DNA of 64,000 bases from Rhynchopus sp. YZ270_cl-10 (taxonomy: Eukaryota): contig OZ037834.1 of NCBI GenBank assembly GCA_964035575.1, positions 620,001-684,000 of the forward strand. The letters are read 5' to 3'. Positions within the stretch are counted from its first letter, which is position 1; each line of letters opens with the position of its first letter. The notes beneath the pieces were generated by a model that saw only the letters and a list, made by a program, of their open reading frames with translations, made no database searches and was not told the origin of the DNA. A program made the translations under genes and the position numbers. This document shows positions 23,511 to 56,068 of this stretch, piece after piece.

Positions 23511-24609
23511 AAGAAACTGTGGGCGGGGTGGTGATTGTGTATATGTGACTATCCTCTGTCTGTAATGACAGTAACCCCCTCCCGCCCTCCCCAGCTGATT
23601 TTGTATTGTATGTTTCTTGGTGATTTCCCTTTGGTTCGATCACCCCAGCGGAGAAGCGGTGCTTCTACGTCCACCGATGAACGGTGAGGCGTTTGTACTT
23701 TTTCAGCTTCTCTTTTTTTTTTTTCACCAAAGGTACACTGTCAACGAGAGGGCTTTTTTTTTTGTATTTCAAAAGTCAAATTTATATTTTCTTTGTTGCG
23801 AAAAATTGCATTTGTCGCTCAGAGCACCGACAGCAAACCCCTCTTGCTCTCTGTACCCCTTCTCAACCTTCACTCCCACACACACAGCTCTGTGTACGGA
23901 CTGGAAGATGGTTTTACAACTTATCTATCCAGCCATGCAACACACTTCACCCTCCTCCTCGCCCGCATTCGTCAAAAAAAAAACCCCCCAGATTTAGCGC
24001 AAACCCTTATTTTCATGACCCAGCGTTTTCCCCTGTTTGCTTGGTTTCTTGGTTGATTATATTTTATTTTTTTCTCAGTGCCGTGCGTCCGCCGGTGAAC
24101 GGTTGAGGTGTTTGCACTTTCAACTTCTCTTTTTTTTTTCAGGTGACTAAGCACGAGAGGCTTAGGATCATCTTATAAACTTTTCGTTTTTTTTCTTTCC
24201 AGGTACACTATCATGAGAGGATTTTGTTTTCGATTATTTTTTAGGTTTCCTTTTTACACCTTTTGTTGACCGCAGGTTACGTTGTGCTTTCATCCTAGAC
24301 TGACATCGCACCGACGTCCGTCGGAAGTGTCGGTCAGCAATGACTCTCCCTTTTTTTATGGACCAATATTATTCGAGATTTGATTTAAAAAAGCACAAAA
24401 GAAAAGCCCCGCTTCCTCTCACCATTTCGATCCTCTCTTCCACCTTCCACCTCCCACACCGACACAACCATACCAATCTCACAGAATTGACATATCCCGT
24501 TAGTAAAACACATCCTTTCTTGTCTCTTTTGAGAAGCCGTATTCATCCGTTTTCCCTTTTGTTGTTGTCTTTTGTCTGCGGAGACACGAAAGGAGAAGGG
24601 ACGAGGACA

Positions 24610-27600
24610 ATGCTGCAACCTGCAGCAGTCGCGATGGGGCTGCTCCTGTCGCTCGGATGCGTGTGTGCGGACACAGCCCCTGCGGTGGTGTTCGACCTTG
24701 AGCCCGGTGCCGCACCTACGGCCTCTTCTGCAGCGTACTGCGGGGGGTTCCTTGTTGTGGGGCGTGCGCCGCTGCTGACGCTGGCTGCGTACCACAAGAC
24801 GGCAGGCGGGTGGACACAGTGCGGTGCTGTGTCCTCTGGTGCAGAGATGTTTGGTGCGAAGGTGCAGTGTCTTGCTGGCTGCGAGGGTGGTGGTGCGCGC
24901 ATGGCAGCGACCTCTGCTGCAGGTGTGCACACTGTGGCCATCTCTGCGGACTGTGTGCTGACTGAGGTTGCCTTCACTGCCTTCCGTACGGCAGCCCCGG
25001 TGACGGCCTTTTCTGCTTACGAAGGCGCCTTCGCGACAGCACACCTCGACGGCCACATCGAACGCAGCCTCTACTCAGACGTCTGCTCCGGGACTGCCAA
25101 CACAACCGACGAAATGAGACAGCTGAGTGCAGACTCGGTTGCCATGGTGGCCGGGCACGTTGCTGCACAGAGTGGCGAGGAGACGGTGCTTGAGGAGGTT
25201 GCCGGTGGTGTGACGTCGACCCGCCTGGGGATGTCCTGCGAGGGGTTGGAGCACCTCCTTGGTGTGGGACTGACCTGTGTTGATGGGGCAGCAACGTGGT
25301 CGCTGTGTGGTCTTTCGAGTGGAATGTACGCAGCATCTGTATCCACGTCCACGTCGACATCCACATCCTCGGACAGCAAGGATGTGACAGTGACAGTGAC
25401 GTACACTGCAAAGGGCGCAGAGCTGCAGACAGCGAAGATCAGTGACGATGTGTTGTTCGCAGGTGGGCAGACGCTTGCGACGTCGACACCACTGTCCTCG
25501 CCGAACCCACCAGCTGTGGCGTGCAGTACTGAGCACGGTGGGGTGGTTGTTGTGCGTGGGCAGGTGTTGCTTGTGTTCCCCCCTGCACAGCACGGAGGTC
25601 TGAGTGAGTTCAGTCCCTTCGGGGCCTGCAGCAATGCGTGCGGGTCGGGGACGATGACACGCACACGCACCTGCTCCAACCCGACGCCGATGTACGACGG
25701 GAACACCTGCGCGACGGCAGACGAGACGGAAACGGTGGCGTGCACCTCGCTGCCGGCAGACTGGCGCATCACGGCCGGAAACTGCACCTGCAGTGGCACG
25801 CAGACACAGACGGCGACATGCCTGCTCTGCGACGGGACGGTGTCGACGCTGTGCTCTGAGGCAGACCGTCCCCCAACGGAGGTGGCGTGCACGCCGCAGA
25901 CGATTGACTGGCTGCCGGTTGGGGAGTTCTCGGAGTGCACGACTTCTGTGCAGAAGAAGTGCGGTGTGGAGGGGGTGCAGACACGCAGTGTGCAGTGTGG
26001 CGATGTGTGCACCCTGGCGGTGACTGGTCTGGACGAGTGCAGCCCCGAGACACAGCCGCGTGCAGTGCAGGCCTGTGTTGGGGAGTGGCACGAGTGGGCT
26101 GCAACGGAGGTGTGTCTCGAGGCACCTGGTGCGACGTCTCCTTCGTCGTGCGAGGGTGTGTCGCAGATGGTGTGCCGTGCTGCGTGCTCGGGGCTGACTG
26201 TGGGGGAGACACACTGCGCGGACCTGGAGAAGCCGCAGCTCCCCTGCCAGCGTCGTGTCTTTGGTGTGACGCACACGGAGTACGGCATCTGCGACAACAT
26301 CTGCGGGGCGGGCTCGCAGTACCGCCAAGCCTTCTGTGTGGACACATGCGAGACGACGCTCCCCAAAACCCCCTTCAACCTGGCGCAATGCGGCACCTCT
26401 GAGGCCGAGCTGACCCTCCGTCGCGACTGTACCTTCTTCGAAGGTGGTTACAAAGCAGACCGCCCAGGGACCTGCAGGCCCACCTGCGTCGGTCGTGGTG
26501 GAACGCAGACGATGGGCTGCACCAGACAGTGTGACAGTGCGCCCGTTGCGAGTTCCTTCTGTGGCGGCGCGAGCACCCGTCCCTGCACAATGCCTGCCAA
26601 TTGTCCCCCGATTAATATTGGCCCGACAATAAACACTAATGGCTGCTACCCTCGCACGGCAGAGCTTCTGACACGGAATGGACCGAAGGCGGCAGCGGAC
26701 GTGACGTCGGCAGACGAACTGCGTACCTGCACTGCGCAGGGTGTGTGCACATGGTCGACGATGCACGGTGTGCACCACCACTCGCATGCAACCCCGATTG
26801 ACATGACGCGTCTGCGCCATGGTGCAGGTCTGCTGGTTGTGTCGCCGGACCACTTTGTGTACACAACTGACGGCCGGAAGCGTGCGCAGGAGGTGGCTCT
26901 GGGTGACGTCCTGCTTGTCCATGAGGGTGAGGGTGAGGGTGAGGGTGAGGTGTTGGTTGCGTCCCCTGTGACGGACATTGGTGCAGAGACTGTGGACGGG
27001 TTTGTCTCGCACCTGACACCCACCTCGACGCTTCTCATCCGCAGTGACGCGAAGGGTGCGTGGACACTGATCTCGGAACACAGCAGCTACGACTTCTCGG
27101 CAGAGGTGATGGACCTCGTGTACCTCCCCTTCCACTTCCTGACGACCTTCACCGGCGACATTGACTCTCCGCAAGAGGCGGGCCTCGACCACCTGCACTG
27201 GTGGGCAAACGGCCTCCTCTGGTGTGCCTCTTCCTTTGGTGGCGGGGAAACCGACCTTCGTGCAGCACCACGCGCCCCGACTGCATGGGAAGGGCTTGTG
27301 GTGCTGGGTGTCTTTGCGCTGTACATTGTGCTTCATGCGGCTGTGGTTGTGTGTGGGCTTCAGGTTCTGTTCACGGCAGTGGCAACAACAAGAGCAGCTA
27401 AGAAGACTGCGACGACAACACACAACAGCAGCAGCAACCACATGTGGCTCGCAGCGTTGGTGTGCGTGCTCTGCACAGGAGCTACCTCGGTGTCGGGAGC
27501 AGAGGTGACGCACCGTGACCACCCCCTGCACAGCGAGGTCGACTACAGAATGCGCATCAAGAGCAAGACTGAGGTGAAGCACCACTCCGCAACGACGGTG

Positions 27601-30600
27601 TCTGGAGGAGTGCGCTGGGCGGACTTTGACCTGACTGCTGTTGGCGAGTCCTGCCATGCGGTGCACGTGCGCTCTCTGTTCGAAGGCGTGGCAGGTTCGA
27701 TGCCGCAGCAGGTGGACACGGCGGTCCTCAACAAATGCCTTCTGCATGTGTGCGACGAAGACTCGCCTGCTGGTCCGGCCTTCCGCAGACACAGCGCAGA
27801 GTGCACAGCACCCGAAGCCCTTGAGGTGATGCTGATGTTGCGCCCGCTGACGATGTGGTACAGCTTTGGGAACGGCACTGCAAAAGAAGAGATGCAGCAC
27901 GCACAGGGCAAGGTCTCGCAGCACAGCCACACCCTCAGTGGGACACATGACGCGCACGGACTGAAAACACTGGAGATCTGCACGGACGCGACGACGCACG
28001 AGGACCACGGACACGGGATGGTCAGCAGAACATGTGCGACGCTGTCGCGTGAAGGTGCGACCCCTGCGACAGCTGCACGTACAGCAGCAGCAACCTCAAC
28101 CCTGCTGACACGCGTGACCCTCACGGAGGCTGCGTCGAAAGCACAGATCCACACGCACGCCCACCGCAGCGCTGCGGAGCCGGAGGAGGACAGCCTTGCG
28201 CCACGTGTGCGCCACCTGGTCACGGGAATGTCAGACTCGCTGGAAGCAGTGCACGCTTTGATGGAGCTGATGACGCACCGTTGGGAGGAGGTTGTGGTTG
28301 TGATTGAAGAGGAGGAGTACCTCTCTCGTGTGGAGCACGAACACGAGGATGAACACGAGGACGAACACAAACAACAGCACGCTCGCCACATGCGGCGTGT
28401 TCTTGATGCACTTGCCTTGGCAGGGACAGTGGAGGCAACGGCGAGGCTGGAGCAGTGCATTGTGGTGCGGTGTGCGGATGTGAACGTGTTGTCGGCGGTG
28501 GTGTGGCAGGGGATGGCTGCGCATGCGGAGGGTGAGGGTGTGCCGTCTCTGTCGCGTGCACTGCTGAGCGCTGTGGAGGAGCACGCGAGCACAGCTGCGG
28601 GGACGACAACAACAACAACAGCAGCAAAACTGGAGGAGCCACACCTGATCGGTGCGGTGATTGCGAAGCACTCTGCCGCGGCAGACCAGCAGGCGCACGC
28701 AGACACGCTGCTTGCAGTGATGAAGGGCCCACACCGTGCTGGGGTCGACGTGCTGCGCAGCCTGCCGATGCACACGGTGCGCGACCACGCAGCGCAGTTC
28801 GCAGACGCACAGTGCAGCAGTGGTGGGCTTGGCTGTGGTGCGGCCCTGCGTGTTCTGTCGCGCGACACAAAGAACGCTGTTGTGCGCGACACACTGGCAC
28901 ACCATGCAGTGACCCACCCACACCCGGATGCACGCGCGACTGCACTGTCGCTTCTGCACAAAAGACATGACTTTGGGTGCAGAGAGGCTGGGATGCTTGC
29001 AGGGAATGTGACTACAACAACAACAACAACAACAACAACAACGACAAGGAGAAGAGGACACGTGGACGAAGCAGAGAAGAAGCTGGTGCGTCTGCTGGCT
29101 GGAGCACGCTGTGGGCGGACTGCAGATGTGCAGGAGAGTCTGCTGAGCTTCGACAAGACCTTTGGTTTGCCGTTGAAGTCGACGGAGAAGAAGCTTGGTG
29201 GCGGCCCTATTGTTGTGACAATGGGCTTCGAATACGGTGTCTTCGCGAAGCTTGCGGCAGACATCCTTGGCGGGTTCTTTGAGTTTGAAGCGAAGGCTGT
29301 GGCGCACGCCTTTGCGGAGCTTGAGGTGCTTGGCTTCACGTTCACGATCTTTGACGCAGACTTCCGCCTTGGCAAGTTCCTCTCCCTGTCTGCACCGCCA
29401 CTGGGGGAGGCGATTGACGTGATTACCGCACTGACGGAAGGAGAAGGAGACGAAAGAGAGAGCAACGTACTGGCTGCAAAGAAGAAGTCTGGGTTTGAGA
29501 CCCCAAGCAAAACAGAGACCCTCACTGAGGCACAGATCTGCGCACAGCTGAAGACACGTGGGTTTGAGATTTCTTCTTCGTGCAGCTCGGTGAAGGCGAC
29601 AACGAAGGACTATGTGCAGGCAGTGAAGCTGTTCAAGGCAATTGTGCAGGGGAAGCGCTCTGTGGAGGAGCAGAGCACGACACTGAGTCCGAAGCTGCAG
29701 GGGTTCCTGACAAAATCGTCAAAAGCGATGTGGCAGCGGGCCTCTGGGGCAGACTGCCTGGACCTTGCGTCAGGCGCACGCGAGACACACCTGCGCTCAG
29801 AGGCACAGGACGTGGTGGAGGGAATTGCACAGCAGCTCTGCGACTTCTGGCGTGCACGTGGCTCCGGATCGCTGCCGCGCATCGGTGCGGCATCCCCGCC
29901 ACAGGGCGGGTCGTACCCGTCGGAGGCAAAGCCCCTGCACGGGACTGCACACCGGACCGGGTCTGACCTGACGATTGAGGGGATCCCGCGGTCGTACCAG
30001 GCGAAGGGGGGTGCGAAGCCGTCTGTTGCGGAGGCGATGTTCCATGCTGAGGCAGCGTTTTGGCTGACGCGGGACAGTGCTGTGTCGTATGTGACGTACG
30101 CGCCCTGGGAGCAGACCTGCATGATGGTGCATATTCTGAACTTTGCGCGGAGTGAGGACGGTGTGGAGGCGGGTGAGCTGGACGAGGAGGCGGTGGAGAC
30201 GTTCTTCACGCATAACTTTGAGCTTGCGGCAGTTGTGGCGCACGAGTCTGCGAGGTCTGCCTGTGCTGCGTTCGGGGACGTGTCGGCGTACCGTACCTTT
30301 GAGCGGAGTGCGAGGGGCGAGGACGGGAACTGGGCGGCGAAGGTGCGCTACGCAGACGGGGCGACGGCAGACCACTACACACTGGTGCTCGACTTTGGGA
30401 AGTCGGTTGGGATCGACCTCCCCTTTGAGGTGACGCAGGAGACGCTGAACAGACTGTCGTTCGAGTTTGCCGGGCAGTCGATCATCGACAGACCTGTGAT
30501 CTCGGCGCACGAGGCGAGTGCGCTTGCGGAGCTGTCTGTGACGAACGACATCCCCGGGAAGCGGATCCTGCTTGCGCGTGTGCAGACCTGCATCCTGGTC

Positions 30601-33600
30601 GTGTTTTTCTGTCTGGAGCTGAGTGCGGAGGCGACGCTCGAGATTGGGGCGACCTGGTCTGTCGGGCTGAACCTCCCCGAGAAGCAGCTGACTGCCGGGC
30701 TTGGGCCGAACGTGCGTCTGCTGGTGACGGCGCAGGCGTCGATCTCGCTGGTCATTGCCAAGGTCGGGGTGGAGATCCGTGGTGTGGTGATGGACGTGAC
30801 GATCCCTGTGACGGCTGGGGTGGACTTCAGCAGCTTCCCGCTGGCAACGAGTCTGTCTGTGCCGCTGGAGCTTGTGCCGTTTGCGATTGAGGTGAACGCG
30901 TTTGTGGCGTACATTCAGGTGAAGATTGGGTTCTTCTACGTGCGGGTGAGCTTCAAGACGCACCGCTTCACGATCCTGCGGTTCTCTGCAAAGTCGCGCC
31001 AGCTGATGCTCTTCAAGCGTGAGTTCCCGACAGCGACGCCGGAGGCACCACGCGCGATGCCGCAGGTTGCCCTTGGCTCGAGTGCGACCTTTGTTGAGGG
31101 CGGAGCCTCGAGTGCGATGCGGACGAAGCAGTGGCCGGGGTCGAACACACCTGTGACGAAGTACTGCGGGCGCATGCTGGGTGCGGACGGGAGTGCCTGT
31201 GGAGCGACGACGTGCAGCACGGTCCCGACCTTGGAGGTGCCGACGGTGGGCTGTTCGGACGGGTGGGTGACGGTTGAGATGAGTGCGACGGGGTCGACTG
31301 GGCGTGTTGCGACGCAGGCTGGGCGGCAGATGTACGTTGTGCAGGGGCCGCCGGTGCCTGTGCTTGACACGACTGCCGACGTCCCGAAGGATGCGGACGG
31401 CTGTCAGTACCGTACGGACGCGGCGCTGCTGTGTGTGCGGTGGACCGAGTCGCGTTTCTCTGCCAACACAACTGTTGCTGTGACGAACAGCAGCGGGGAC
31501 GTGGTTGCGTCTGCGTCTGGGCAGCTGGGGCGCCGCTTCTGCATCAGGGACGTCGCACGCGAGCTTCCCGACGGCGAGGCCTACAACGTGACTGTCACGA
31601 CTGTCGGCGTTACTGGGCTCTCTTCTCAGGACAGCATGTGTGTGCGCACTGACTTCCGTGTCCCGCAGGTGACTGAGGCGACTGCGACCTGTGGTGATGA
31701 CGCCACCTTTCAGACTGACCTGCGTCGTCTCTGCTTCTCTGCGCGTGTTGGGAACGTTCCCTTTGGTGGTCTTGAGGCGGAGCCAGTGTTCTTTGTGAAG
31801 CTTGCGAACGGGAGTCTCATTACAGGACGTGGTGTGCTTACGCCTATTGCTGGTGGTGGTGGTGCTAGTGGTGATTTGCGCTTCACTGCCTCTGTTGTTG
31901 TGGGAGACACTGCAGCAGACCTGCCTGTCGGACGCAACTACGCAGAGGCAACTGTGAAGGGGAAGGCAGGGAGCTCAGCTCGTGTGCCTCTGGGCAGCTT
32001 CTTCACCTTTGCAACACAGGCACCTGAAAGGGTTGCGAACCCGGCCTGTGTGCTGCCTTCGGGGCAGGTCTGCGTGACACTGACAGAGCCCGAAGACTTT
32101 GGGTTTGGGCCGACACGGACACTGATCATGCGTCTGTTTGATGGTGAAACTGCGGTGGAGGCAGCCTTGGCTTCAACCTCAGAAGCAGTTACATTTGACG
32201 CGCAGCAGTGCTTTTCGATGCCTGCGTCGCATGCCGAGGTGGGACTGCGTGTTGGGGTTGCTGCGACACAGATGGGACAGGTGTCTGCGTTCACTCTGGG
32301 GAATGTGGTGCGGGTGACGGCGCTGGCACCGAAGTGTGGTGTGTATGTTGGGGACGCGACGGGGCGGAGGGAGGTGTCGCGCTTTGCGAGCAAGGTGTGC
32401 TTCATTGCGACGGCGGAGGGGTGTGGTGTGCACGGTGCGCAGGCGACGCTCTCTGACGCCTTTGGTGCGACGCTTGCGACGGGCCCTGCTGTCCTCGGCG
32501 CCCTGCACTGCCTCCCCGTGGACGCAGCGACGCCTCTCGACGACGGAGCAGAGTACACCCTTGCCTTCACCGCAACCGGAGGCAACCTGAAGACCTGCCT
32601 CACCTCGCACCGCTTCACCGTCGACCTCACCCCGCCAGCAAACAAGGTGACCCACCCTGTTGTGGTGCACGCAGGGAACGAGGTGACTGTGTCCGTTGAG
32701 CGTGTCTCGGACGACACAGCAACGGAGACGCTGACGGCGTCCCTCGGGGAGGAGCTGCTTTCGGTGACCTCGGTGCAGACCTCGGACGCGGCGAACAAGA
32801 ACAACACGGTCTTCACGTTGGAGACCGGGAACTTCAGTGGGAACGTGCAGTTCTTCTACGCAGCGACAGATGCGGCAGGGAATGTGCAGCGCGAGTCTGG
32901 CCGCATTGTTGTGTGGACGCCGCCGGAGCTGAGTGCTGGGGATGTTGTGAACGGACGCTATGCGCACGATGCTGTGGTGCCGCAGGACAGACTCACTGTG
33001 ACGTTGTTGCCGTGTGTGCGTCGTGCTGGTGCGACTGCTGCTACTACTGCACCGAGCGACAAGGTCGTGGTGACGGGTGTGTATGGCGCAACGACGGTGC
33101 TGACGAGAGCTGCTGCAGAGGAGGCCATGCGCCGCTGCAGCGACAGCGGCCACCGCCTTGTGCGCACCAGTGCCACGACTGCTGTTGAGGTGATGTGTGA
33201 GGGTGGACGTGTCCTGCTTGCGGTCATTAGTGCCAACACCACAACCACAACGACAGCAACAGCAACACGCAGGATGTGCCAGGACACAGCCTGGGGCCTG
33301 CCACCCGTGAGCGGGAGGGGACGCATCATCGGCGACACTGGCTACTGCTCGGCCCTGGTGCGGTCGCTGCCCCTGCGTGAGGTGCTCTTCTCGTCACCCG
33401 GGCACTCGGACGTGCAGACTGTGGGGAACTGCATTGGCGGGCGCACGCTGGACGCCGTGCTGCGTGGTGATGCTGCTGAGGAGACAAGGTGCGGGACGGG
33501 CCGCTTTGGCGGTGTGCGTGGGCACCCTGCTGTGGACGCAGACGTGCTTACCTTTGGTGGTGCGGGCATGGTGGTGCGTGTGTCGGATGCGGCAGGGCTG

Positions 33601-36600
33601 AGTGTGGACGGGACAATGTCGGGACTGGCAGTGGTGGGTGGTGGCGCTGTGCACAACACGTACCTGGCGGTGTGGGGCGTGCCGCAGGCAGTCGTCGACC
33701 ACGACGGGACGTGCCCGATCCCAAGCCGCTTCGAGGAGCTGCAGTACGCCTGCTCGCTTGCGGTGCTCGACGCGGAGAACACCTCGGTGGTGTACCACAC
33801 AGGCGCACTGCTTGCCGGACAGCACAGCGTGACGGTGAACCTGACCGACTCTGCGTCGGACGGCACCTCGGTCGTGTCCCGCGTGACCTGCTCCGACGGG
33901 ACTGGGACCTATGTCTCTGCCACGTCCCCGCCCTCTGTTCTGAACAGCCAGTGCTCTGGCGAGGTTGCCTTCACACAGCGTGCCTACCCCGACGTGGCGA
34001 GCTTGGCTGCGACAGTGGACATCCCTGCCTATGACTGCGTGTCTTCTGGCGGCTGCACGCTTGAGTACTGTCTCGGGACGGCGCCCTTTGACTGCAGTGT
34101 GGTTGCGACGACACAGACGCAGTTTGCTGAGACGCTGGACTTCTCGAACTCGACAAACGTGACGCAGCTAAGCGAGGACACACAGGTGTTCCTCTTGGTG
34201 CGTGTGCTGAAGGATGGCCTGCCGACGTGCGAACTGCCTGTTGCGACGGCGGATGTGGACACGACGCCACCGAAGGCGGCAGTCGACGTGGACTGCGGGT
34301 GCGGTGCCTCGAGGGGGTATGCCTGCAGCGAAGACGAGAACGTGACGTGCACGGTGTTTGTGTCTGGGGACGAGCCCTCGAGTGATGCGGTGGACATCAC
34401 GCTGACGATTGACGGTGGTGCTGCCGAGGGGGTGCTGTTCTCGCAGGTCGGTGTTGCTGTGGTACGTGAGGGCTTCTTCGCGAAGACGTACTTTGCGCGT
34501 GTGGCGACCTCGCACGCACAGAAGCTGACCGTGACTGCGTTTGTCGAGAACGGCGCGGGCCTGTCTGCGAAGGTGTCACAGTCGAAGATTGTCGACACCA
34601 CCCCTGCGGCGCTGTCTGTTGCCGTCAACGACGTTGCGATGACTGCCTTCGTCTCGGACGAGGATGTGTCGGTGCTGCTTGTGAACGCCTTTGCGCCGAA
34701 CGGGTGGTGCGTGGAGTGGAATGCGACCCACGACCTGGGGGATGTCACCCTGCGTGCACGTGTTGAGGATGCGGCGGGTGCTGCGCTCCCCCTCCCAGGC
34801 ACTACTGGTGCAGCAGCACCAGAAGGGACAAACACGACAACGCTGTGCTTTGGAAACGAGTCGCGTGGGAACGGTGGTGACGGGGACGTGTGGGTCGGGC
34901 TTGTGTCGCTGCGTGTGGTGAGTGGGCAGGAGCGCACGACACGCTACCGTGTGACACCGGACTCTGTGCACCCGACGGTGCTGGTGGCAGTTGCGGGTCT
35001 GCCTGCAGAGGGGGCTGCGAACAGCTCTGACCTGTGCGTGGACACGACAGCGACGGACGACCACAGCGTGCGTTCTGCAGAGCTGACTGTGCGCCAACAG
35101 GGCAGTGTGATTGTGGAGACAGCAGCCGTGGCGACAAACGCACAGTCGCAGCACTGCCTGAAGCCGCTTGCAGACGGGCTCTACGTGGTCACCCTAACAG
35201 CAGTCGACATGGTTGGGTTGGTGTCCTCTGTGGAACAGGTTATGCGCGTGGCAACGGCGATCCCCGCATTTGCGGTTGAGCTTGGCTGTGAGGAGGGGCG
35301 TGCGATCCTTGAGGACGGGAAGACGCTGTGGGCACATGCGACGCTGTGTGTGTCGCACGAGGCGCACGACTGGGTGACCTACGCAACGGAGGTTGAGGAC
35401 GCGGATGGGAAGGCGCTGCCTGCGGGCTTCACTGCGTGGGAGAACGCTGCGCAGTACACGGTGCGCGTGGTGGCGACGGACAACTACGGGTTTGGGCTGA
35501 CGTTCACCTCGGACGTGGTGTCCTTTGTGTTTGCGGAGGGGCGGACGGAGGTTGTACATGCACTCAACTTCACTGCGGGCAGCAGCTACGAGTCTGTGCA
35601 CCACGTCTCTGCGGGGGAGGTCTGCGTCGACGTCAGCGACCTGGCACCTGCCAGCGGCGAGACGCTCTCCTGCGACGTTGTCGTCACACCGGACGTTGCG
35701 TGCGAGCCGCAGAATGCTGACCAGACTGCAGCACAGTGTGCTGGCGCAGTGACAACGACTTTTACTGCAAAGAACGACACGCTTCTCGACGTTGTCTGTG
35801 TTGCGCTCAGGAAGAAGGACAATGCCACCGACAGTGAGAACGCGACAGCAATAGCAACAGCAACCCTCCCCGAGGGAACCCTGCAGGCAGTCGCACAGTG
35901 CAGGGGGCCACGTCTGTCGGGCGAGGTTGCTGCCGGGCTTCTTGTGAACGAGGTGACGCGGCCGCTTCTCCTTGGCGTGAAGACGTACGACGTGACGCCG
36001 GACGTTGCAGGGCAGATGGTGCGTGTGGCGATCAACACTGTGTACCCGGGGAGCCTCGACGTGACTGTGCAGAACAGTGCTGGGGAGACTGTTGCGGAGG
36101 AGAGGAACGTCGCTGTGGACACGGAGGGGACGAAGGAGGGCGCTGCGGACGGGACACGCTCCTTTGTTGCCGAGTTTGCGGAGCCTTTCGAGTCTGGGGT
36201 GTACAAGGTGGTGGCGCAGTTCAGGACACATGGTGGGTTTGCTGTTCTGGGGGAGACCTCGTTCCAGTCGGTCCCTGTGGACCACGTTCCCGTGATTGAG
36301 ATGCTGAGCAACGACACCGAGAACGAGAAGACAGTGCTTGCAGACGCACTGTCGCACGCCCATGCCCCGACAGTGCGCAACGGTGTGCTCCTTGTGGACA
36401 CAGTGACGGACGAGAGCCTGGACGCGAACTACACAATCACATACCTGACACAGAAAGACAACATTGTGCGGTTCCGCATCTCCTCTGAGTTTGCGGTGCG
36501 TTCTGTGGGGTTCTCTGCAGGTCGGGCAGGACCTGGGTCGGATGTTGTTGCGGTGACCTGGCTGCCGCTCTCTGAGGAGGGTGTTTACGAGGCGGAGCTG

Positions 36601-38439
36601 ACGACAGTTGTGCTGGGGGAGGTGTTTTTGACAGCACACGTGTGTCTGACGGAGTGCAGCACAGCTCTGTTGGGGGTGTTCCAGTACGACTTGACTGCAC
36701 CGGTGAAGGTGGAGGCGGAGGGGCTGCCGGTGCCGGTGTTTGCGGCACCGAGCCTGGGGCAGACTGTTTATTTCAACACGACCTTTGAAGACGACGAGAC
36801 AGACCTGAGCAGGTTTGTGATCTGCATTGCTGCGTCTGCAGAGGCAGCGGAAGGTGGCGCATGCACAGTGCGTCTCGACACAGAGACACCACAGTACGAA
36901 ATGCTGCTGCCAGCGACGTTCCCCGCGGGCCCCGCAGTGACGTGCATCACAGCGCACAACAAGGCAGGCCTGACGACCCAGGTCTGCAACACGACGACGG
37001 TCTCCCTGGACTCGCCCGACGTGGTGGCGAGGTTCGGGTTCGGGAGCGCACCCCTGCAGGGACGTGTGAAGCCTGGCCTTGGTGTGACGCTGAGCTCTGG
37101 GCTTGAAGAGGACACTGCGGTGCCGCTCCTGCACTGCCGCTTTACGTTGACGGTGAACGGCGGGCTTGCGGACGAGTCTGAGAAGATTGAGGCGACCATG
37201 TTCCCATTCCCGTTGGAGGTTGCTGGCGGGGATGTGCTGGGGGCAGAGGTGTGCTGCACACTTGCGAACCAGGTGTCTGCGTGCAGCACAGCGACGTCTG
37301 TCGTGCTGTCGGACGCAGAGGTGTCGGCACTGCTGTCGGAGGGGAACACCCTTGCGGACTTTGGGAGTGTGGATGTGACGCCGCCGGTGTGCAAGGACAA
37401 CTTCACACAGATGTGCTCCGAGGTCGACGGGGAGGAGGACTGCTCTAGCGAGCGTGTCTTTGTGACGGTGGGGCGCAACGCCACGGCTTCGTGGGGTGGG
37501 TGTGCGGACGCAGAGTCGGAGATGCTGTACAACTGCACGCTGTTTGTGCTGAACGACGACGGGAGCACGACCATCGCAGAGGTGGTGACGACGTCCGAGG
37601 CTGGGTCCATCTCCTTTGAGAAGAAGGCGACACCTTCGACCCGCATCACCTGCACTGCGGCCAACCGCTTTGGGCTCAACGTCACGACCTCTGCCGAGGC
37701 TGTGTGGGACTTTGCGCCACCAACGATCAACACGCGCAGCTACTCGCAGGGCTGCATCCACCTCGCCCTCGAGGACACGATCTCTGGTGTCGATGTGTCG
37801 ACGCTGTCCATGCAGGTCGGGGAGGAGGACTGGACAAGCCGTTACAACGGCAGCCACGTCTGCTGGACGACTGACGAGGTTGAGAACTCGACGATGCTGG
37901 TCAAGGTGTCGGACTTTGCACGCAACGAGGCGAGCGCCTTGGTGGCCCTGCGTGGGCCCACCTCAACCGAGACCACCTTCCACAGCATCGGTCTGTGCAG
38001 CGGGAACACCCCGACACTGTGCCCAGCACGCATGCCAGAGACAAACGAGGTGCACAGTGTTCAGTTCGTTGTCGACGGCACGCCGACACCCAAGGTCGAC
38101 TTTGACGGCTGCATGGAGAGCCGCTTCTTCGCGACCCTCTATGAGAAGCACGGTGTCAGCCACGGCTCCGACATTCAGATGCGGTGGACCAAGGTCAACT
38201 CAGACGTTCTTGTCACAGAGTACTCGTGTGTGTCTGCCACGACAGTGCGCAGTGTCCACAAGAAGGACAACGAGGACAACGTTGTGATGATTGTGCTCCT
38301 TGTTGTTGCAGTTGTGGTTCTGCTGCTTGTTGTCGTTGCGCTTCTGGTGTACACAAAGAAGCAGGGCAGCAAGAACACCACAGCCCCAGTCGGGAGTACA
38401 GAACCCTGTCGGGAGCAGATTCAACATGACGTTGTGTAA
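24610..38439 (+). CDS. Giant intronless membrane-anchored protein (~4,609 aa): signal peptide, TSP1 repeats, Hog (Hint+SRR), TM, internal signal peptide, vitellogenin/LLT-like region, MepA-like region, DxTPP Ig/FN3-like repeats, C-terminal TM
   Basis: Uninterrupted ORF (the frame is open from 24340). MLQPAAVAMGLLLSLGCVCA signal at 24610. TSP1 FSPFGACSNACGSGTMTRTRTC. Hint G|CYP...SPDH...GFVSHLT. HWWANGL. C-terminal VVMIVLLVVAVVVLLLVVVALLVY followed by KK. Confidence 0.88.
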   Translation: MLQPAAVAMGLLLSLGCVCADTAPAVVFDLEPGAAPTASSAAYCGGFLVVGRAPLLTLAAYHKTAGGWTQCGAVSSGAEMFGAKVQCLAGCEGGGARMAATSAAGVHTVAISADCVLTEVAFTAFRTAAPVTAFSAYEGAFATAHLDGHIERSLYSDVCSGTANTTDEMRQLSADSVAMVAGHVAAQSGEETVLEEVAGGVTSTRLGMSCEGLEHLLGVGLTCVDGAATWSLCGLSSGMYAASVSTSTSTSTSSDSKDVTVTVTYTAKGAELQTAKISDDVLFAGGQTLATSTPLSSPNPPAVACSTEHGGVVVVRGQVLLVFPPAQHGGLSEFSPFGACSNACGSGTMTRTRTCSNPTPMYDGNTCATADETETVACTSLPADWRITAGNCTCSGTQTQTATCLLCDGTVSTLCSEADRPPTEVACTPQTIDWLPVGEFSECTTSVQKKCGVEGVQTRSVQCGDVCTLAVTGLDECSPETQPRAVQACVGEWHEWAATEVCLEAPGATSPSSCEGVSQMVCRAACSGLTVGETHCADLEKPQLPCQRRVFGVTHTEYGICDNICGAGSQYRQAFCVDTCETTLPKTPFNLAQCGTSEAELTLRRDCTFFEGGYKADRPGTCRPTCVGRGGTQTMGCTRQCDSAPVASSFCGGASTRPCTMPANCPPINIGPTINTNGCYPRTAELLTRNGPKAAADVTSADELRTCTAQGVCTWSTMHGVHHHSHATPIDMTRLRHGAGLLVVSPDHFVYTTDGRKRAQEVALGDVLLVHEGEGEGEGEVLVASPVTDIGAETVDGFVSHLTPTSTLLIRSDAKGAWTLISEHSSYDFSAEVMDLVYLPFHFLTTFTGDIDSPQEAGLDHLHWWANGLLWCASSFGGGETDLRAAPRAPTAWEGLVVLGVFALYIVLHAAVVVCGLQVLFTAVATTRAAKKTATTTHNSSSNHMWLAALVCVLCTGATSVSGAEVTHRDHPLHSEVDYRMRIKSKTEVKHHSATTVSGGVRWADFDLTAVGESCHAVHVRSLFEGVAGSMPQQVDTAVLNKCLLHVCDEDSPAGPAFRRHSAECTAPEALEVMLMLRPLTMWYSFGNGTAKEEMQHAQGKVSQHSHTLSGTHDAHGLKTLEICTDATTHEDHGHGMVSRTCATLSREGATPATAARTAAATSTLLTRVTLTEAASKAQIHTHAHRSAAEPEEDSLAPRVRHLVTGMSDSLEAVHALMELMTHRWEEVVVVIEEEEYLSRVEHEHEDEHEDEHKQQHARHMRRVLDALALAGTVEATARLEQCIVVRCADVNVLSAVVWQGMAAHAEGEGVPSLSRALLSAVEEHASTAAGTTTTTTAAKLEEPHLIGAVIAKHSAAADQQAHADTLLAVMKGPHRAGVDVLRSLPMHTVRDHAAQFADAQCSSGGLGCGAALRVLSRDTKNAVVRDTLAHHAVTHPHPDARATALSLLHKRHDFGCREAGMLAGNVTTTTTTTTTTTTRRRGHVDEAEKKLVRLLAGARCGRTADVQESLLSFDKTFGLPLKSTEKKLGGGPIVVTMGFEYGVFAKLAADILGGFFEFEAKAVAHAFAELEVLGFTFTIFDADFRLGKFLSLSAPPLGEAIDVITALTEGEGDERESNVLAAKKKSGFETPSKTETLTEAQICAQLKTRGFEISSSCSSVKATTKDYVQAVKLFKAIVQGKRSVEEQSTTLSPKLQGFLTKSSKAMWQRASGADCLDLASGARETHLRSEAQDVVEGIAQQLCDFWRARGSGSLPRIGAASPPQGGSYPSEAKPLHGTAHRTGSDLTIEGIPRSYQAKGGAKPSVAEAMFHAEAAFWLTRDSAVSYVTYAPWEQTCMMVHILNFARSEDGVEAGELDEEAVETFFTHNFELAAVVAHESARSACAAFGDVSAYRTFERSARGEDGNWAAKVRYADGATADHYTLVLDFGKSVGIDLPFEVTQETLNRLSFEFAGQSIIDRPVISAHEASALAELSVTNDIPGKRILLARVQTCILVVFFCLELSAEATLEIGATWSVGLNLPEKQLTAGLGPNVRLLVTAQASISLVIAKVGVEIRGVVMDVTIPVTAGVDFSSFPLATSLSVPLELVPFAIEVNAFVAYIQVKIGFFYVRVSFKTHRFTILRFSAKSRQLMLFKREFPTATPEAPRAMPQVALGSSATFVEGGASSAMRTKQWPGSNTPVTKYCGRMLGADGSACGATTCSTVPTLEVPTVGCSDGWVTVEMSATGSTGRVATQAGRQMYVVQGPPVPVLDTTADVPKDADGCQYRTDAALLCVRWTESRFSANTTVAVTNSSGDVVASASGQLGRRFCIRDVARELPDGEAYNVTVTTVGVTGLSSQDSMCVRTDFRVPQVTEATATCGDDATFQTDLRRLCFSARVGNVPFGGLEAEPVFFVKLANGSLITGRGVLTPIAGGGGASGDLRFTASVVVGDTAADLPVGRNYAEATVKGKAGSSARVPLGSFFTFATQAPERVANPACVLPSGQVCVTLTEPEDFGFGPTRTLIMRLFDGETAVEAALASTSEAVTFDAQQCFSMPASHAEVGLRVGVAATQMGQVSAFTLGNVVRVTALAPKCGVYVGDATGRREVSRFASKVCFIATAEGCGVHGAQATLSDAFGATLATGPAVLGALHCLPVDAATPLDDGAEYTLAFTATGGNLKTCLTSHRFTVDLTPPANKVTHPVVVHAGNEVTVSVERVSDDTATETLTASLGEELLSVTSVQTSDAANKNNTVFTLETGNFSGNVQFFYAATDAAGNVQRESGRIVVWTPPELSAGDVVNGRYAHDAVVPQDRLTVTLLPCVRRAGATAATTAPSDKVVVTGVYGATTVLTRAAAEEAMRRCSDSGHRLVRTSATTAVEVMCEGGRVLLAVISANTTTTTTATATRRMCQDTAWGLPPVSGRGRIIGDTGYCSALVRSLPLREVLFSSPGHSDVQTVGNCIGGRTLDAVLRGDAAEETRCGTGRFGGVRGHPAVDADVLTFGGAGMVVRVSDAAGLSVDGTMSGLAVVGGGAVHNTYLAVWGVPQAVVDHDGTCPIPSRFEELQYACSLAVLDAENTSVVYHTGALLAGQHSVTVNLTDSASDGTSVVSRVTCSDGTGTYVSATSPPSVLNSQCSGEVAFTQRAYPDVASLAATVDIPAYDCVSSGGCTLEYCLGTAPFDCSVVATTQTQFAETLDFSNSTNVTQLSEDTQVFLLVRVLKDGLPTCELPVATADVDTTPPKAAVDVDCGCGASRGYACSEDENVTCTVFVSGDEPSSDAVDITLTIDGGAAEGVLFSQVGVAVVREGFFAKTYFARVATSHAQKLTVTAFVENGAGLSAKVSQSKIVDTTPAALSVAVNDVAMTAFVSDEDVSVLLVNAFAPNGWCVEWNATHDLGDVTLRARVEDAAGAALPLPGTTGAAAPEGTNTTTLCFGNESRGNGGDGDVWVGLVSLRVVSGQERTTRYRVTPDSVHPTVLVAVAGLPAEGAANSSDLCVDTTATDDHSVRSAELTVRQQGSVIVETAAVATNAQSQHCLKPLADGLYVVTLTAVDMVGLVSSVEQVMRVATAIPAFAVELGCEEGRAILEDGKTLWAHATLCVSHEAHDWVTYATEVEDADGKALPAGFTAWENAAQYTVRVVATDNYGFGLTFTSDVVSFVFAEGRTEVVHALNFTAGSSYESVHHVSAGEVCVDVSDLAPASGETLSCDVVVTPDVACEPQNADQTAAQCAGAVTTTFTAKNDTLLDVVCVALRKKDNATDSENATAIATATLPEGTLQAVAQCRGPRLSGEVAAGLLVNEVTRPLLLGVKTYDVTPDVAGQMVRVAINTVYPGSLDVTVQNSAGETVAEERNVAVDTEGTKEGAADGTRSFVAEFAEPFESGVYKVVAQFRTHGGFAVLGETSFQSVPVDHVPVIEMLSNDTENEKTVLADALSHAHAPTVRNGVLLVDTVTDESLDANYTITYLTQKDNIVRFRISSEFAVRSVGFSAGRAGPGSDVVAVTWLPLSEEGVYEAELTTVVLGEVFLTAHVCLTECSTALLGVFQYDLTAPVKVEAEGLPVPVFAAPSLGQTVYFNTTFEDDETDLSRFVICIAASAEAAEGGACTVRLDTETPQYEMLLPATFPAGPAVTCITAHNKAGLTTQVCNTTTVSLDSPDVVARFGFGSAPLQGRVKPGLGVTLSSGLEEDTAVPLLHCRFTLTVNGGLADESEKIEATMFPFPLEVAGGDVLGAEVCCTLANQVSACSTATSVVLSDAEVSALLSEGNTLADFGSVDVTPPVCKDNFTQMCSEVDGEEDCSSERVFVTVGRNATASWGGCADAESEMLYNCTLFVLNDDGSTTIAEVVTTSEAGSISFEKKATPSTRITCTAANRFGLNVTTSAEAVWDFAPPTINTRSYSQGCIHLALEDTISGVDVSTLSMQVGEEDWTSRYNGSHVCWTTDEVENSTMLVKVSDFARNEASALVALRGPTSTETTFHSIGLCSGNTPTLCPARMPETNEVHSVQFVVDGTPTPKVDFDGCMESRFFATLYEKHGVSHGSDIQMRWTKVNSDVLVTEYSCVSATTVRSVHKKDNEDNVVMIVLLVVAVVVLLLVVVALLVYTKKQGSKNTTAPVGSTEPCREQIQHDVV

Positions 38440-50305: not shown

Positions 50306-51346
50306 GGGTGTCCCGGCGGTACCACACTAACACCCACTTACGCACACTTTCACCCCATTACACCCCATTACACCCCATTACACCCACTTTCACCCCATTA
50401 CGCCCCATTACACCCCATTACACATGAATTACAACGCTTGGTGTTTTGGTCTTTACTAAAGGGATGTGCGGACGACATCAAAAAAATTGAAATTTTTCGC
50501 GATATTTGGTGCTCCAAAAATTTTCCGGAACCGAAAATCGTGTAGTTTGGGGGTATTGAGGCCAGAAAAAATATGTGTGAATACATGAAAATATTCCTGA
50601 TAGGGTGGCATTCGGCCAAAACATCAGCTGTTTTGGTCATTTTTGCCTTGTACAGTGCTGTGTACTGTGTACTGTGTACTGTGTACTGTGTACTGTGTAC
50701 TGTGTACTGTGTACTGTGTACTGTGTACTGTGTACTGTGTACTGTGTACTGTGTACTGTGTACTGTGTACTGTGTACTGTGTACTGTGTACTGTGTACTG
50801 TGTACTGTGTACTGTGTACTGTGTACTGTGTACTGTGTACTGTGTACTGTGTACTGTGTACTGTGTACTGTGTACTGTGTACTGTGTACTGTGTACTGTG
50901 TACTGTGTACTGTGTACTGTGTACTGTGTACTGTGTACTGTGTACTGTGTACTGTGTACTGTGTACTGTGTACTGTGTACTGTGTAGAAACACGGTAGAA
51001 ACACGGTGGAAACATGGGGAATCGGTTATGTAGCCACGCCAGTAAAAATTTAACACCGGTGGCACTGTACGCATAAGTGCATAGAAAAAATCGTAAAACA
51101 ACGTGTAATCTGTGGTGGTCAAAAGTGCAAAATTCCTTCGGCAATCGTCAGCCAGGCAATTTTTTTTTTGCTCCACTCGCCAAAAAAAATTTTGTTGTCA
51201 CCTTTTTTGGACTTTTCGTGTTGAAAAAACGGGGGGAAAACGAAAAAAATGCAAAAAGTTTAAATTCCCTCCATTACACTCCATTACACCCCATTACGCC
51301 CCATTACACCCCATTACACCTGAATTACGCCGTGCCCGGGACACCC
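50306..51346. mobile_element. Mutator-like non-autonomous element
   Basis: GGGTGTCCCGG ... CCGGGACACCC, with a 9-bp TSD CATATTTTG at 50297-50305 and 51347-51355. Subterminal CACCCCATTA repeats. Confidence 0.7.
50658..50986. repeat. Perfect heptamer microsatellite (CTGTGTA) x ~47
   Basis: Directly visible in the sequence. Confidence 0.97.
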
Positions 51347-51667: not shown

Positions 51668-54508
51668 ATGTCTCCTGGTGTGGATGACGGAAGTGGACCC
51701 CTGCCCTTGGAGAATGAACAACAGGCTACCTCTTCCATAGCTGGTCTACAAGGCTCTGTTGCAGAAGCGCAAGAAGCTGTGAGGAAGCTGCAGACAGAGA
51801 AGGAGGCGAAGGAGAAAAAGAAGGAGATGCCGAGTGATCACATTGTTATCTTAAACCGTTGTCTTCGGCTGAATACGTTTACTCACGATGGCTTTACTAT
51901 CGATACTTTGGGTGAAGTTGCGGATCGTTTTGATCATGCCCGACCAAGCGAGGACGCTATACAGGCCGTGATCACCGAGCTCAAGGAGGAGAAGTCGATC
52001 GAGGAGGATCGTCTGAAGGTATCACCCTTACTTTCGTAGTTTCTATTCACTTAACCTTTGAGTTGAGTCATTACATGTGGTTGTACTGTCTGTGTGGCGT
52101 AGGGAACTTTGGACCTTTTGGAGGCACGGCGAGTGGTCTACTTGCGTTTCCACATTATTTGTATTTCATTTTTCCAGCAATGACCCATTCGCAACATGTG
52201 TGTGTTGGGGTTGCAAAGTCGGCAGTGGAGATGTTGCACAGCTTTGTATTTTATTCTGTTGTTTCGAGTCGTTGTACATTTATTTTGCACACACTTACAG
52301 AAAGCTGAGGAAAATCTGTCCACTGCACTCAAGACCCTGGAGTATGCAATGGCGAAGGATGCTCAACTGCAGCCATTCGATATGGATGAATTTGTGAAGA
52401 AGGCGATTTCGCCGTGCGAACCAAGCACCAACAATAGTAAAAAGCGCATTGGGCGTGATGGGTTCAACCAGAGGTTGGTCTCCATTGTGGATGAACTCAC
52501 GGTGAGAGATAAACTCAAGGGAATGACGATGCAAAACACAAGAGCACTGGTGTTGGCGTGTGCTTCTGGAGTTGGGAAGACGTTTGGCACATTAACAGCA
52601 CGACAGGGCTTTCAACAGCAAGAGATGGAGAATGGGGGCAAGAAGCGTTATGAACCTGTTGTGGCATACATCGGATTCAACTGCGCCTCGCCACTGTCTG
52701 ATAATGAAGCAGCTTTTCTCGGGGATGGGAGCGTGGATGGAGACACTTGCGTCAAGGTACTTGTCTTGTCCCGCTTGTTTGCTTGGCTCAATGGGTACAA
52801 GCAGCTGCAGAGCGAGAAGCAGCAACTGGGCCCAACAGTTCTTGACATTCCAGATTCAGACGTGCAGATGCAGTTCAGGCTTGGAGAACTGATGACCAAA
52901 GAAGACCTCAAGGACGTGGACGTGAACGACATAACGGCACGCATTACGCAGATGCTCGAGGAGTTTGGGAAACAAACCCCTGGGCTTGTGTTGATTGTCG
53001 TCGTGGACGAGGGTCAGAAGCTGGACGAGAAGCGTAAGGATGGCGCACGGTTTGCTCTGAGGTACCTGCGACAATTACAAATGCATATGATGCGTGTGAA
53101 GGAGGCAGTGAGAGTGCTTCCTGTATGCACGGGAATCAACCCACAGACCCACCTCAGTGATGCAAGAGAAGGACAAAACATTTCACTCACGACACAAGAA
53201 GAAGTTTTATTGAGCCCGGAAGAATTTGACAGCCTCCTCCACACTGTATACTACGACAACACAAGACTTCATAAATGGCGCAGAAAAGGCGATGCAACAG
53301 AACAAGAAATCAGAGACCTCAGTCTCTTCGCCGCTCTCACATGGCCACGGGTGAGGCCTGTGATGGAGATGCCAGATAAGGGATTCAAGATTTTTGCCGA
53401 TGATTCACCTCTCATGTGGGCGCCGAATACGACTGACTGGGATGTCCGGCGCATGCTACATGCAGCGGCAGATGGTGACTACCTTGCAGCCAACTTCAAG
53501 ATACCTACAAATATGGTTCGTCTGATTGACTCAGATGGGCAGCAGTGTCCGGTGATCGACTACAGCGTGCTCGAAAGAGTCGGAGTTCGTTTGCTAGGGT
53601 CAGAGTTCGCCAACTGGTTTCCCGACCGAGTGGACCTCAGAGGACTGAGCAGCGAAGGTTGGGCGACGTTTGAGAACAACGCATTCCGCACTTTGGCCCT
53701 TTTCCTGCTCTTCTTCTATCACAACAGGGAAGCCACATACACCATGCCCCCAACTGGCGAGAAGACGTCTCGACTCACAAACTGGGTGCCTGAGTCTGTC
53801 AACAAGGTAGAGATCATAACGCTGAAGAACGAAACGTGCCAGAGTCACCCCTTCAACGTGCAAAAGTGGATGACGAGCAAGAAACTGGGAGACACTCCCA
53901 AAGTAGTCAAGAACGTCAGCAAAGAATTTGCCACCGCATTGGAGGCGCTGGAGGTGGGTGGTGCGACTCTGATGCATTGCAAGGGATCGGCACCTATGGA
54001 CTTCATTTTGGTGACGTTGGAGGAGGGCAAGACACTGCAGGTCCGCTACGCAGACGCGAAGCACAGGAGTAACGAAGTGATGTCGAAGGGAGACGTCAAT
54101 GAAATGCTTGACAAGGCAGAAGGAGTCCACAACACACTACGTGAACTTCTCAAAGGACAGTTCACCGTACCTGAATGGAAGGACAGCAACTTACTTATCA
54201 TCACCAACTCCCAGTTTGATGATAACTGTCTGGAGAGTTGTTCGCCTCCGAAAAAGTACGAACTTCTCGACAAGGTACGTGTGATGAGTCCTCGGACGAC
54301 AACGTGGGAACCTATGACGAGAGTTCTGTACCGCAGTGTTCCTGCTCCAACCTCAAGTGTGTTGGCATCGCGTCCTGTGTATCCAGTGCTCTCTCAACTC
54401 CCGGAAATGACGAGGAAGACGTGGAGCACACCTCCACCACAGACAGGAGCTAGATTGACGAGAACTGTACCGGTCTTGTGGTTCGTGCGGAGACTCAAAT
54501 TCATGTAA
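51668..54508 (+). CDS. Crinkler/RHS-like protein: helical header, P-loop NTPase and putative PD-(D/E)xK REase. Exons 51668-52018 and 52301-54508 (~852 aa)
   Basis: Walker A ACASGVGKT and Walker B LIVVVDEGQ. The C-terminal APMDFILV...YADAKH fits a restriction-endonuclease fold. Phase-0 GTATCA..ACAG intron. Confidence 0.75.
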
Positions 54509-55596: not shown

Positions 55597-55955
55597 ATGT
55601 CGCTCCTAGCGAAAGCCAGAGAGACCTACGACCGTGCGCAAGCACTGGTCCTAGCGTCGAACTCAGAGGAGACCAAGATCCTTGCACTACAATGCATTGA
55701 TCTCTGCCTGAGTGTCCTGGGTGCCCCCCAGCCTAATCCCCCACATGGTGCTGATAACAGCAATGGCAGCAGCAGGACCGCATTTGGCGGCGGCAGCAGC
55801 AATAGCAACATCAACAGCAACCGCAACAATTACAGCAACAAGAACAGCAACAACAGCAACAACAGAAACAGCAACGGCAACAGCAACAACAGAAACCGCT
55901 CTGCATGGGTGCAGGTCCCCGGCAAGAGCAGCGGCAACAACAACAACAGCAACAA

Positions 55956-56031
<76 letters not shown>

Positions 56032-56032
56032 C

Positions 56033-56068
<36 letters not shown>

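Follow-up and report, generated by a model that had tools for sequence, protein, structure and literature searches.

A 64,000-nucleotide stretch of contig OZ037834.1 (positions 620,001 to 684,000, Rhynchopus sp. YZ270_cl-10), which we call the window and in whose coordinates all positions are given, carries at 24610-38439 on the + strand a single unbroken open reading frame (ORF) of 4,609 amino acids (aa) plus stop, here named P0001, in a single-celled eukaryote. Our conclusion is that this gene represents a real and conserved new architecture, a Hog-domain protein that is built like a polyprotein. With a probability of roughly 0.5, we read it from its sequence as a cellular polyprotein, which signal peptidase and its own Hint domain would together divide into three surface pieces. 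Its parts, numbered by residues of P0001 and with a slash at each predicted cut, are as follows (SRR, sterol recognition region).

24610..38439, + strand: whole ORF P0001; the frame is also unbroken in the database proteins P0002, P0012 and P0013 (94-97% identity) and P0014 (34-40%)
24610..24669, + strand: N-terminal signal peptide, aa 1-20, predicted cut VCA/D (hydropathy and -3/-1 scan; identical in all 4 close copies)
24670..25569, + strand: N-terminal ectodomain, aa 21-320 (31% identity to P0014)
25570..26589, + strand: Cys-rich region with TSP1 repeats, aa 321-660 (PF00090, E 6e-8; PF19030 in three stretches)
26590..26643, + strand: highly variable stretch with Gly678 as its last residue, directly preceding the predicted self-cleavage site (comparison of 4 close copies)
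26644..27084, + strand: Hint domain, aa 679-825, with Cys679, His723 (D46 position), Ser745-x-x-His748 and Glu823 (C143 position) (Pfam, profile, model, Foldseek)
27085..27249, + strand: two SRR-like helices, aa 826-880, motifs YLPFH and HLHWW (helices in model; 53% identity to P0014)
27295..27372, + strand: transmembrane helix 1, aa 896-921, predicted stop-transfer (Kyte-Doolittle 19-residue mean 2.76)
27373..27441, + strand: basic variable linker, aa 922-944, predicted cytosolic (3 K/R, 0 D/E; in P0014, 4 and 0)
27442..27501, + strand: internal signal-peptide-like segment, aa 945-964, predicted cut SGA/E (short hydrophobic core, -3/-1 site; in P0014, VWG/D)
27502..31029, + strand: probable large-lipid-transfer (vitellogenin/MTP/ApoB-like) module, aa 965 to ~2140 (ESM Atlas, low-confidence model, Foldseek, VIA)
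29410..30384, + strand: insert within that module, aa ~1601-1925 (alignment; P0014 has ~600 extra residues here)
31030..38259, + strand: long stalk, probably of beta-sandwich repeats and rich in N-glycosylation sequons, aa 2141-4550 (35-45% identity to P0014)
38281..38352, + strand: C-terminal transmembrane helix, aa 4558-4581, followed by a cytosolic tail of 28 residues (19-residue mean 3.86)

The proposed pathway would begin with the first signal peptide, which would lead the TSP1 ectodomain, the Hint domain and the SRR-like helices into the lumen of the endoplasmic reticulum. Hydropathy and charge suggest that helix 896-921 would then stop transfer and leave the basic linker in the cytosol, and that segment 945-964 would restart translocation and afterwards be removed, the latter being suggested also by the -3/-1 residues retained in a diverged relative. 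The predicted signal peptidase cuts fall after residues 20 and 964. The Hint domain would cut itself between Gly678 and Cys679, with Cys679 and His748 driving the N-S shift; the fold and the residues are in evidence, and the chemistry is presumed from them. The resulting thioester would be opened close to the membrane, where attack by water or a non-standard nucleophile is likelier than Cys143-dependent cholesterol transfer. Three products would arise in equimolar amounts: a 658-aa TSP1 piece, shed or loosely held; a Hog piece of 286 aa that stays in the membrane; and a type-I surface protein of 3,645 aa with a probable lipid-binding tip module on a long stalk.

The Hint domain is central to this proposal. 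The Pfam Hint family matches at E 7e-6 over model positions 8-206 of 213, and a four-sequence profile searched against PDB gave as its only significant matches three Drosophila Hedgehog chains, the best being 6TYY (E 1.6e-5), the D46H mutant of Drosophila Hedgehog Hint; a single-sequence Hint query against PDB gave chance-level matches only. An AlphaFold2 model of the Hog region has a mean predicted local distance difference test (pLDDT) score of 66.7, with the Hint core mostly at 70-93. Foldseek ranks 6TYY and 1AT0 first and second of 47 matches at E<=0.001 (best E 2.2e-7), and structural comparison puts 1AT0 first among 48,161 chains (Z 17.4, root-mean-square deviation (rmsd) 1.9, 137 aligned). 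A preliminary description of this DNA, made from the letters alone, had proposed a Hint fold, and the model bears it out, being closest to Hedgehog. We conclude from model and profile that the Hint domain is real and of Hedgehog type. The model also contains the two Hog-like helices that had been placed after it (model residues 161-178 and 191-206, pLDDT ~45-64), the first of which aligns, in a partial profile alignment, with the start of the SRR of Drosophila Hedgehog in 6TD6. The internal position noticed earlier holds as well: ~3,730 residues follow the Hog, and the arrangement is the same in P0014.

Comparison of four close copies suggests that the domain is in use. Only 2 of 147 Hint positions vary, versus 58 of 640 upstream (Fisher p 0.0005); in the stalk the figure is 171 of 2,410. 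The 18 positions of 26590-26643, adjoining this almost invariant domain, vary at 11 and carry indels even among near-identical copies, while the Gly-Cys junction (678/679) is retained in all four and in P0014. Because the Hint domain is strongly constrained and the 18 residues before its cut are hypervariable, we read it, with fair confidence, as an active N-terminal cleavage domain; cleavage between Gly678 and Cys679 itself seems, from the same sequences, reasonably probable. The end of the domain reads I-S-E, with neither a C-terminal His-Asn nor a +1 nucleophile, so splicing or C-terminal cleavage is not expected.

The residue at the Cys143 position complicates this picture. Residues 9-155 of the model align with 258-402 of 1AT0 and place Glu823 on Cys400, and all four subfamily members have Glu here. 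In Hedgehog, C143A and C143D are reported to block both processing and cleavage by dithiothreitol (DTT) (PMC12054796). There is thus a case for a Hint domain that does not cleave, serving as a folded spacer or sterol sensor, with signal peptidase alone releasing a 944-residue TSP1-Hog protein and the giant protein, both type-I: both substitutions are dead in Hedgehog, and the Glu is shared by the whole subfamily. We consider such an inactive domain unlikely, given that Cys1, both catalytic His and the preceding Gly are retained across ~60% divergence, that the invariant Glu looks selected rather than decayed, and that many protist Hog domains have Ser, Thr or Asp in place of this motif J Cys (PMC2362128).

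What the same Glu affects more directly is the fate of the TSP1 piece, described earlier as released and possibly sterol-modified. Release is retained in our proposal; the sterol step is weakened by Glu823, which the earlier account had missed. Since Hedgehog needs Cys143, sterol attachment becomes doubtful and plain cleavage likelier, and we think a sterol adduct on Gly678 rather improbable. A fully Hedgehog-like outcome, with a sterol ligated to Gly678 anchoring the TSP1 piece in the membrane, overlaps the polyprotein reading, which allows for more than one nucleophile. It can draw on the His at D46, which in Hedgehog supports ligation across a wider range of sterols (PMC9163320), on the best structural and profile match being the D46H mutant 6TYY, and on the SRR-like helices being the best conserved part relative to P0014. 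As the branched intermediate on Cys143 cannot form, we judge this outcome improbable.

The His in question is residue 723 (at 26776), which aligns with His46 of 6TYY. Together with Cys679 and His748 it is kept in 4/4 subfamily members, and His at the D46 position, like the His748 equivalent, is found in 8/8 aligned Hog sequences. The earlier suggestion that this His implies a different adduct does not survive: because His is common in Hog domains and the Hedgehog D303H mutant (D46H) is active, still ligating cholesterol over a widened sterol range (PMC9163320), its presence does not itself mean another adduct. A review names Asp or His for general-base site 46 (PMC7765530). In the block-B TxxH motif, Thr is replaced by Ser in the window protein, P0014, P0004 and P0006, with His748 retained.

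Signal peptides, cut sites and membrane helices were called by simple scans of hydropathy, charge and -3/-1 residues. By these measures the first and second signals are alike (9-residue means 2.6-3.2, 19-residue means 1.7-1.8), the second standing at about 3.1 and about 1.7, and differ from the membrane helices (19-residue means 2.8 and 3.9). Among four close copies the second signal varies at 1 of 20 positions, compared with 12 of 23 in the linker (p 0.0009), where length changes are always in frame and which, at 13% identity to P0014, is the least conserved part. In both the window protein and P0014 the -3/-1 site precedes an acidic residue (SGA/E and VWG/D), the linker is basic and the luminal side acidic, which agrees with the self-consistent, positive-inside topology predicted in the preliminary description. 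On these sequence features we think it likely that signal peptidase cuts the second signal.

The most direct challenge to that cut comes from two other proteins, P0004 (1,590 aa) and P0006 (684 aa). Both are Cys-rich and end in a C-terminal Hog, a helix, a basic loop and a hydrophobic segment, after which come Pro and a short tail. They carry His at position 46 and Glu at 143 and belong to a small unnamed subfamily of membrane-tethered Hog domains. That they share the window protein's series of Hog, helix, basic loop and hydrophobic segment, with Pro after the would-be cut, suggests that a hairpin anchor is the ancestral unit. By this account the Hint domain cuts, the second segment stays as an uncut membrane helix, and the Hog with its two-helix hairpin remains joined to the giant ectodomain, giving two products. 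We regard this as unlikely, given how short the segment would be as a membrane helix (19-residue mean 1.66; 1.74 in P0014) and that a -3/-1 site followed by an acidic residue is present in both proteins. The Hog and hairpin may be the older unit, later extended by a downstream gene, or that gene may have brought the second segment with it as its own signal peptide, captured through loss of a stop.

That both halves belong to one protein is best judged from relatives. A search of 1.84 billion representatives gave 10 matches at E<=0.001, in clusters containing P0002, P0012, P0013 and P0014. The first three match the window protein over their full length. P0014 is longer (6,662 aa) and may be an orthologue or an old paralogue; in order, it has a signal peptide, TSP1 region, G/CYP Hint, HLHLW helix, membrane helix, basic linker, second signal-like segment, downstream region and C-terminal helix. 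The single frame recognised in the window thus recurs, in the same order, in three near-identical copies and in P0014, and the split into two genes that the preliminary description had entertained for relatives is not seen in P0014, the one diverged full-length relative found. P0014 has no Met beside its second signal, the nearest, Met1088, ending helix 1, and no stop codon lies between the halves of the window gene; two separate genes are therefore unlikely. Single translation across both halves is, on this comparison, very probable. Elsewhere, relatives were scarce. P0003 is a 122-aa Hint fragment that clusters with P0014 and is without Cys1 and SRR. Proteins of 469-2,000 aa held no homologue of the Hog region, 7,994 candidates scanned with a Hog profile yielded P0004 and P0006 only, and the metagenome, prokaryote and viral contigs searched held no related locus. 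Among 1,370 scored candidates of 2,534-8,066 aa, P0002 was the only homologue of the lipid-transfer region, in a search insensitive enough to have missed P0014.

It could still be that the downstream part comes also, or mainly, from an mRNA of its own, trans-spliced at Met945, and that the fusion is read-through of two polycistronic neighbours. The segment starts exactly at a Met in 4/4 close copies, the linker before it is the least conserved part, and the layout of the window fits an organism with trans-splicing: its long genes are all on the + strand and encode a neurotransmitter-type transporter, whose gene has GT-AG introns, as well as a kinase, SPRY and CTLH proteins, an adenosine deaminase, a poly(A) polymerase and retroelements. 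Diplonema is described as having one-way gene clusters with canonical introns (PMC10161547), so the layout of the window suggests a diplonemid-like euglenozoan. Such read-through is nevertheless very unlikely in our estimation. The upstream part is without a stop codon, linker indels are in frame in 4/4 copies, P0014 is without the Met, and a pyrimidine tract is absent before 27442, where the longest run is 5; the run before 24610 measures 11, and 64 internal Mets average 6.2.

The gene model was examined as well. Each landmark of the preliminary description was found in its place: Gly678 at 26641, Cys679 at 26644, SPDH at 26842-26853, HLHWWANG from 27190, TTRAAKKT at 27385-27408, Met945 at 27442 and Glu965 at 27502, with 3,645 residues then running to the end. 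The same frame is already open from an ATG at 24340, 90 codons further upstream. The GC content of those 90 codons is 43%, versus ~60% within the gene, and three near-identical database proteins begin at the Met equivalent to 24610; base composition and the start of relatives thus rule out a start at 24340. An assembly artefact is ruled out by retention of the frame in four independent records. An in-frame intron at the junction is unlikely, there being no GTATG donor there and a GC content at third codon positions of 0.60-0.62, as elsewhere in the gene; it is further disfavoured by the SRR, helix 1 and second signal being 27-53% identical to P0014. Variants from other sequencing runs were scored at 36 of the 40 listed from a total of 243 (the four omitted were one lying outside the gene and three neighbouring ones close to contig ends), and comprise 25 synonymous and 11 nonsynonymous changes and 0 stops. 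Contigs of four such runs were compared for 15 of 462 joints and 24 of 1,891 loose ends, and no listed piece spans the junction. In run X2, two CAG/CAA-rich stretches are linked by a joint between 27443 and 28610 at a depth of ~3,900, versus ~230 at the locus; we took it to be a repeat contig.

Turning to the pieces, the ectodomain had been described as ~680 aa, Cys-rich and bearing TSP1 repeats. The repeats are real, with TSP1 above the Pfam cut-off at residues 332-379 (E 6e-8). The Cys-rich description needs a small amendment, since 36 of the front part's 48 cysteines fall in residues 320-677, and residues 21-320 form a separate domain with no match in Pfam or PHROGs. Nor did Pfam match an N-terminal Hedge signalling domain in residues 1-677, where TSP1 is found.

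The downstream protein probably begins with a large-lipid-transfer module, to judge from modelled structure. Its first ~1,150 residues resemble vitellogenin/MTP in ESM Atlas (score 0.84, a lead only), and the model of the module, at a mean pLDDT of 37, shows a beta sheet, then a helical solenoid and further sheets. With that pLDDT-37 model, Foldseek ranks lipovitellin, MTP, ApoB and vitellogenin at 1-11 (best E 4.8e-10, template modelling (TM) scores of 0.12-0.17), and 11 of 13 matches at E<=0.001 belong to the large lipid transfer family; the top VIA match of the same low-confidence model is ApoB 9BD1 (Z 13.3, rmsd 19.7, 354 aligned). By sequence, no match to the module was obtained in Pfam (including Vitellogenin_N), phmmer or PDB searches. 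In the stalk, Pfam gave sub-threshold matches only (Cadherin_5, E 0.043; Big_13, E 0.066), and six D-x-x-x-P motifs mark boundaries.

The insert in this module differs between relatives. In P0014 (residues ~1990-2530) it has Cys-rich repeats and motifs like those of a GH19 lysozyme/chitinase, plus an H-x-S-H-x-x-G-x-x-x-D motif and a later H-x-H like those of a LAS-type peptidase. The window insert is without the GH19-like part and some of the motif residues of P0014. A MepA/LAS metallopeptidase reading of the insert is statistically unsupported: the short aligned MepA-like motif of the shared insert scores below shuffled controls, with no Pfam match. The sequences suggest that the insert is a swappable site for wall-degrading cargo.

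Several of these results weigh against a three-piece polyprotein. The Pfam Hint score is under the curated cut-off (26.2 vs 29.7 bits), the block-B Thr is Ser, and Cys143 is a Glu where C143A and C143D abolish both Hedgehog processing and DTT cleavage (PMC12054796). In P0004 and P0006 the Pro that follows the likely cut site of the second hydrophobic segment means that this segment may be an uncut hairpin helix. All 4 close copies retain Met945, which allows for a second, shorter mRNA or a second start, and the one diverged full-length relative found, P0014, is perhaps a paralogue. The lipid-transfer assignment depends on a pLDDT-37 model, TM-scores of 0.12-0.17 and an Atlas lead, with sequence methods silent.

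Compared with the Hedgehog Hog (1AT0, 6TYY), the window domain has the same Hint fold, Gly/Cys site and block-B His, a filled general-base position, two later helices with an HW motif, and a luminal location after a signal peptide. It differs in being internal, followed by a membrane helix and ~3,700 residues, whereas the Hedgehog Hog is C-terminal, and in having Ser for the TxxH Thr, Glu for Cys143 and TSP1 instead of Hedge. Protist Hog proteins are described from dinoflagellates, Cryptosporidium, red algae, jakobids, haptophytes and, as Hoglet, a choanoflagellate (PMC2362128). Like the window protein they have a signal peptide, a secreted, Cys-rich N-terminus plus a Hog, often with the motif J Cys replaced; unlike it, they are described as an N-terminal domain plus Hog, none in the part of that account drawn on here having a membrane helix, second signal or downstream ectodomain (PMC2362128). 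Inteins and BIL domains share the fold and an internal Hint flanked on both sides by host sequence, but the window Hint lacks the C-terminal His-Asn and +1 nucleophile and has SRR-like helices after it. The window protein is thus a Hog-domain protein without the Cys143 and C-terminal position of Hedgehog, and is not an intein. In the literature searched, with subscription journals and the supplements of PMC2362128 outside its scope, neither an internal Hog joined to a membrane helix and second signal nor a Hog-lipid-transfer fusion came up.

In overall plan there are viral parallels. Flavivirus and hepacivirus polyproteins are cut by signal peptidase at internal signals. So is the bunyavirus glycoprotein precursor, an envelope polyprotein (PMC7926653). 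With these the window protein shares a predicted stop-transfer helix, a short cytosolic loop and an internal signal, giving two luminal ectodomains per chain; it differs in being encoded by a cell, amid housekeeping genes, and in its additional predicted Hint cut, and the searches run found no link of sequence or fold to viral glycoproteins. The comparison with large lipid transfer proteins (lipovitellin 1LSH, MTP 6I7S, ApoB 9BD1, bee vitellogenin 9ENR) is provisional: the predicted order of N-terminal beta sheet, helical solenoid and beta-rich region is the same, while the window module is anchored to the membrane through a stalk of 2,400 residues, contains an interrupting insert and has no sequence match.

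A more speculative extension would make one chain the source of both a Hog-processed, lipid-tagged ligand and an anchored lipid-transfer protein that receives or displays it, by a Cys143-independent, Glu-assisted ligation undescribed for Hog. Hedgehog, which is carried on lipophorin, offers a parallel to such a pairing of lipid-tagged ligand and lipid-transfer protein. We consider this, from sequence, a long shot.

The window holds other elements. An intergenic ~55-nt element with an apparent inverted repeat (families D12 and D17) is dispersed through it and reaches very high depth in sequencing runs; a second dispersed intergenic element of 50-70 nt ends in a T run (families D15 and D16), with one copy 32 nt past the giant gene's stop.

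1698, 9899, 17464, 24153, 38661, 38836, 39264, 40690, 45621, 45733, 45845: copies of the D12/D17 element
7272, 12175, 17925, 23671, 24090, 38471, 39965, 43096, 46301, 61872: copies of the D15/D16 element

Five similar ~80-110-nt copies at 5377-6217, with ATGATG and CTGA words, resemble a cluster of box C/D small nucleolar RNAs (family D14). Rfam gave no match anywhere in the window, the D12/D17 and D14 elements included. At 3484-5385 (+) is a reverse transcriptase with a weak Pfam match, followed by a stretch that is presumably the RNase H of DIRS-type retroelements. A two-ORF retroelement of the type lacking long terminal repeats (non-LTR), with endonuclease and reverse transcriptase, occupies 55597-61884 (+), and its flanking 199-300-nt repeats recur in the window. 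A 770-aa ORF at 52196-54508 (+) has a P-loop-like motif and no confident Pfam match, and at 50585-51056 a tandem 14-nt repeat lies between 10-nt repeat arrays.

Hog domains are known as C-terminal, single-use modules. The natural His46/Glu143 pair allows the recent claim that Hedgehog-type processing cannot do without Cys143 to be tested directly, and such a Hint domain could give a ligase of new range for sterols or other nucleophiles. If the lipid-transfer assignment is true, a membrane-anchored relative of vitellogenin and ApoB in a protist would also inform ideas on how that family arose. It is a guess that the protein helps to bind lipid-rich prey or substrate surfaces. If the polyprotein reading is true, a cellular eukaryote would be using a virus-like polyprotein and two different cutting chemistries to make surface proteins in a fixed ratio.

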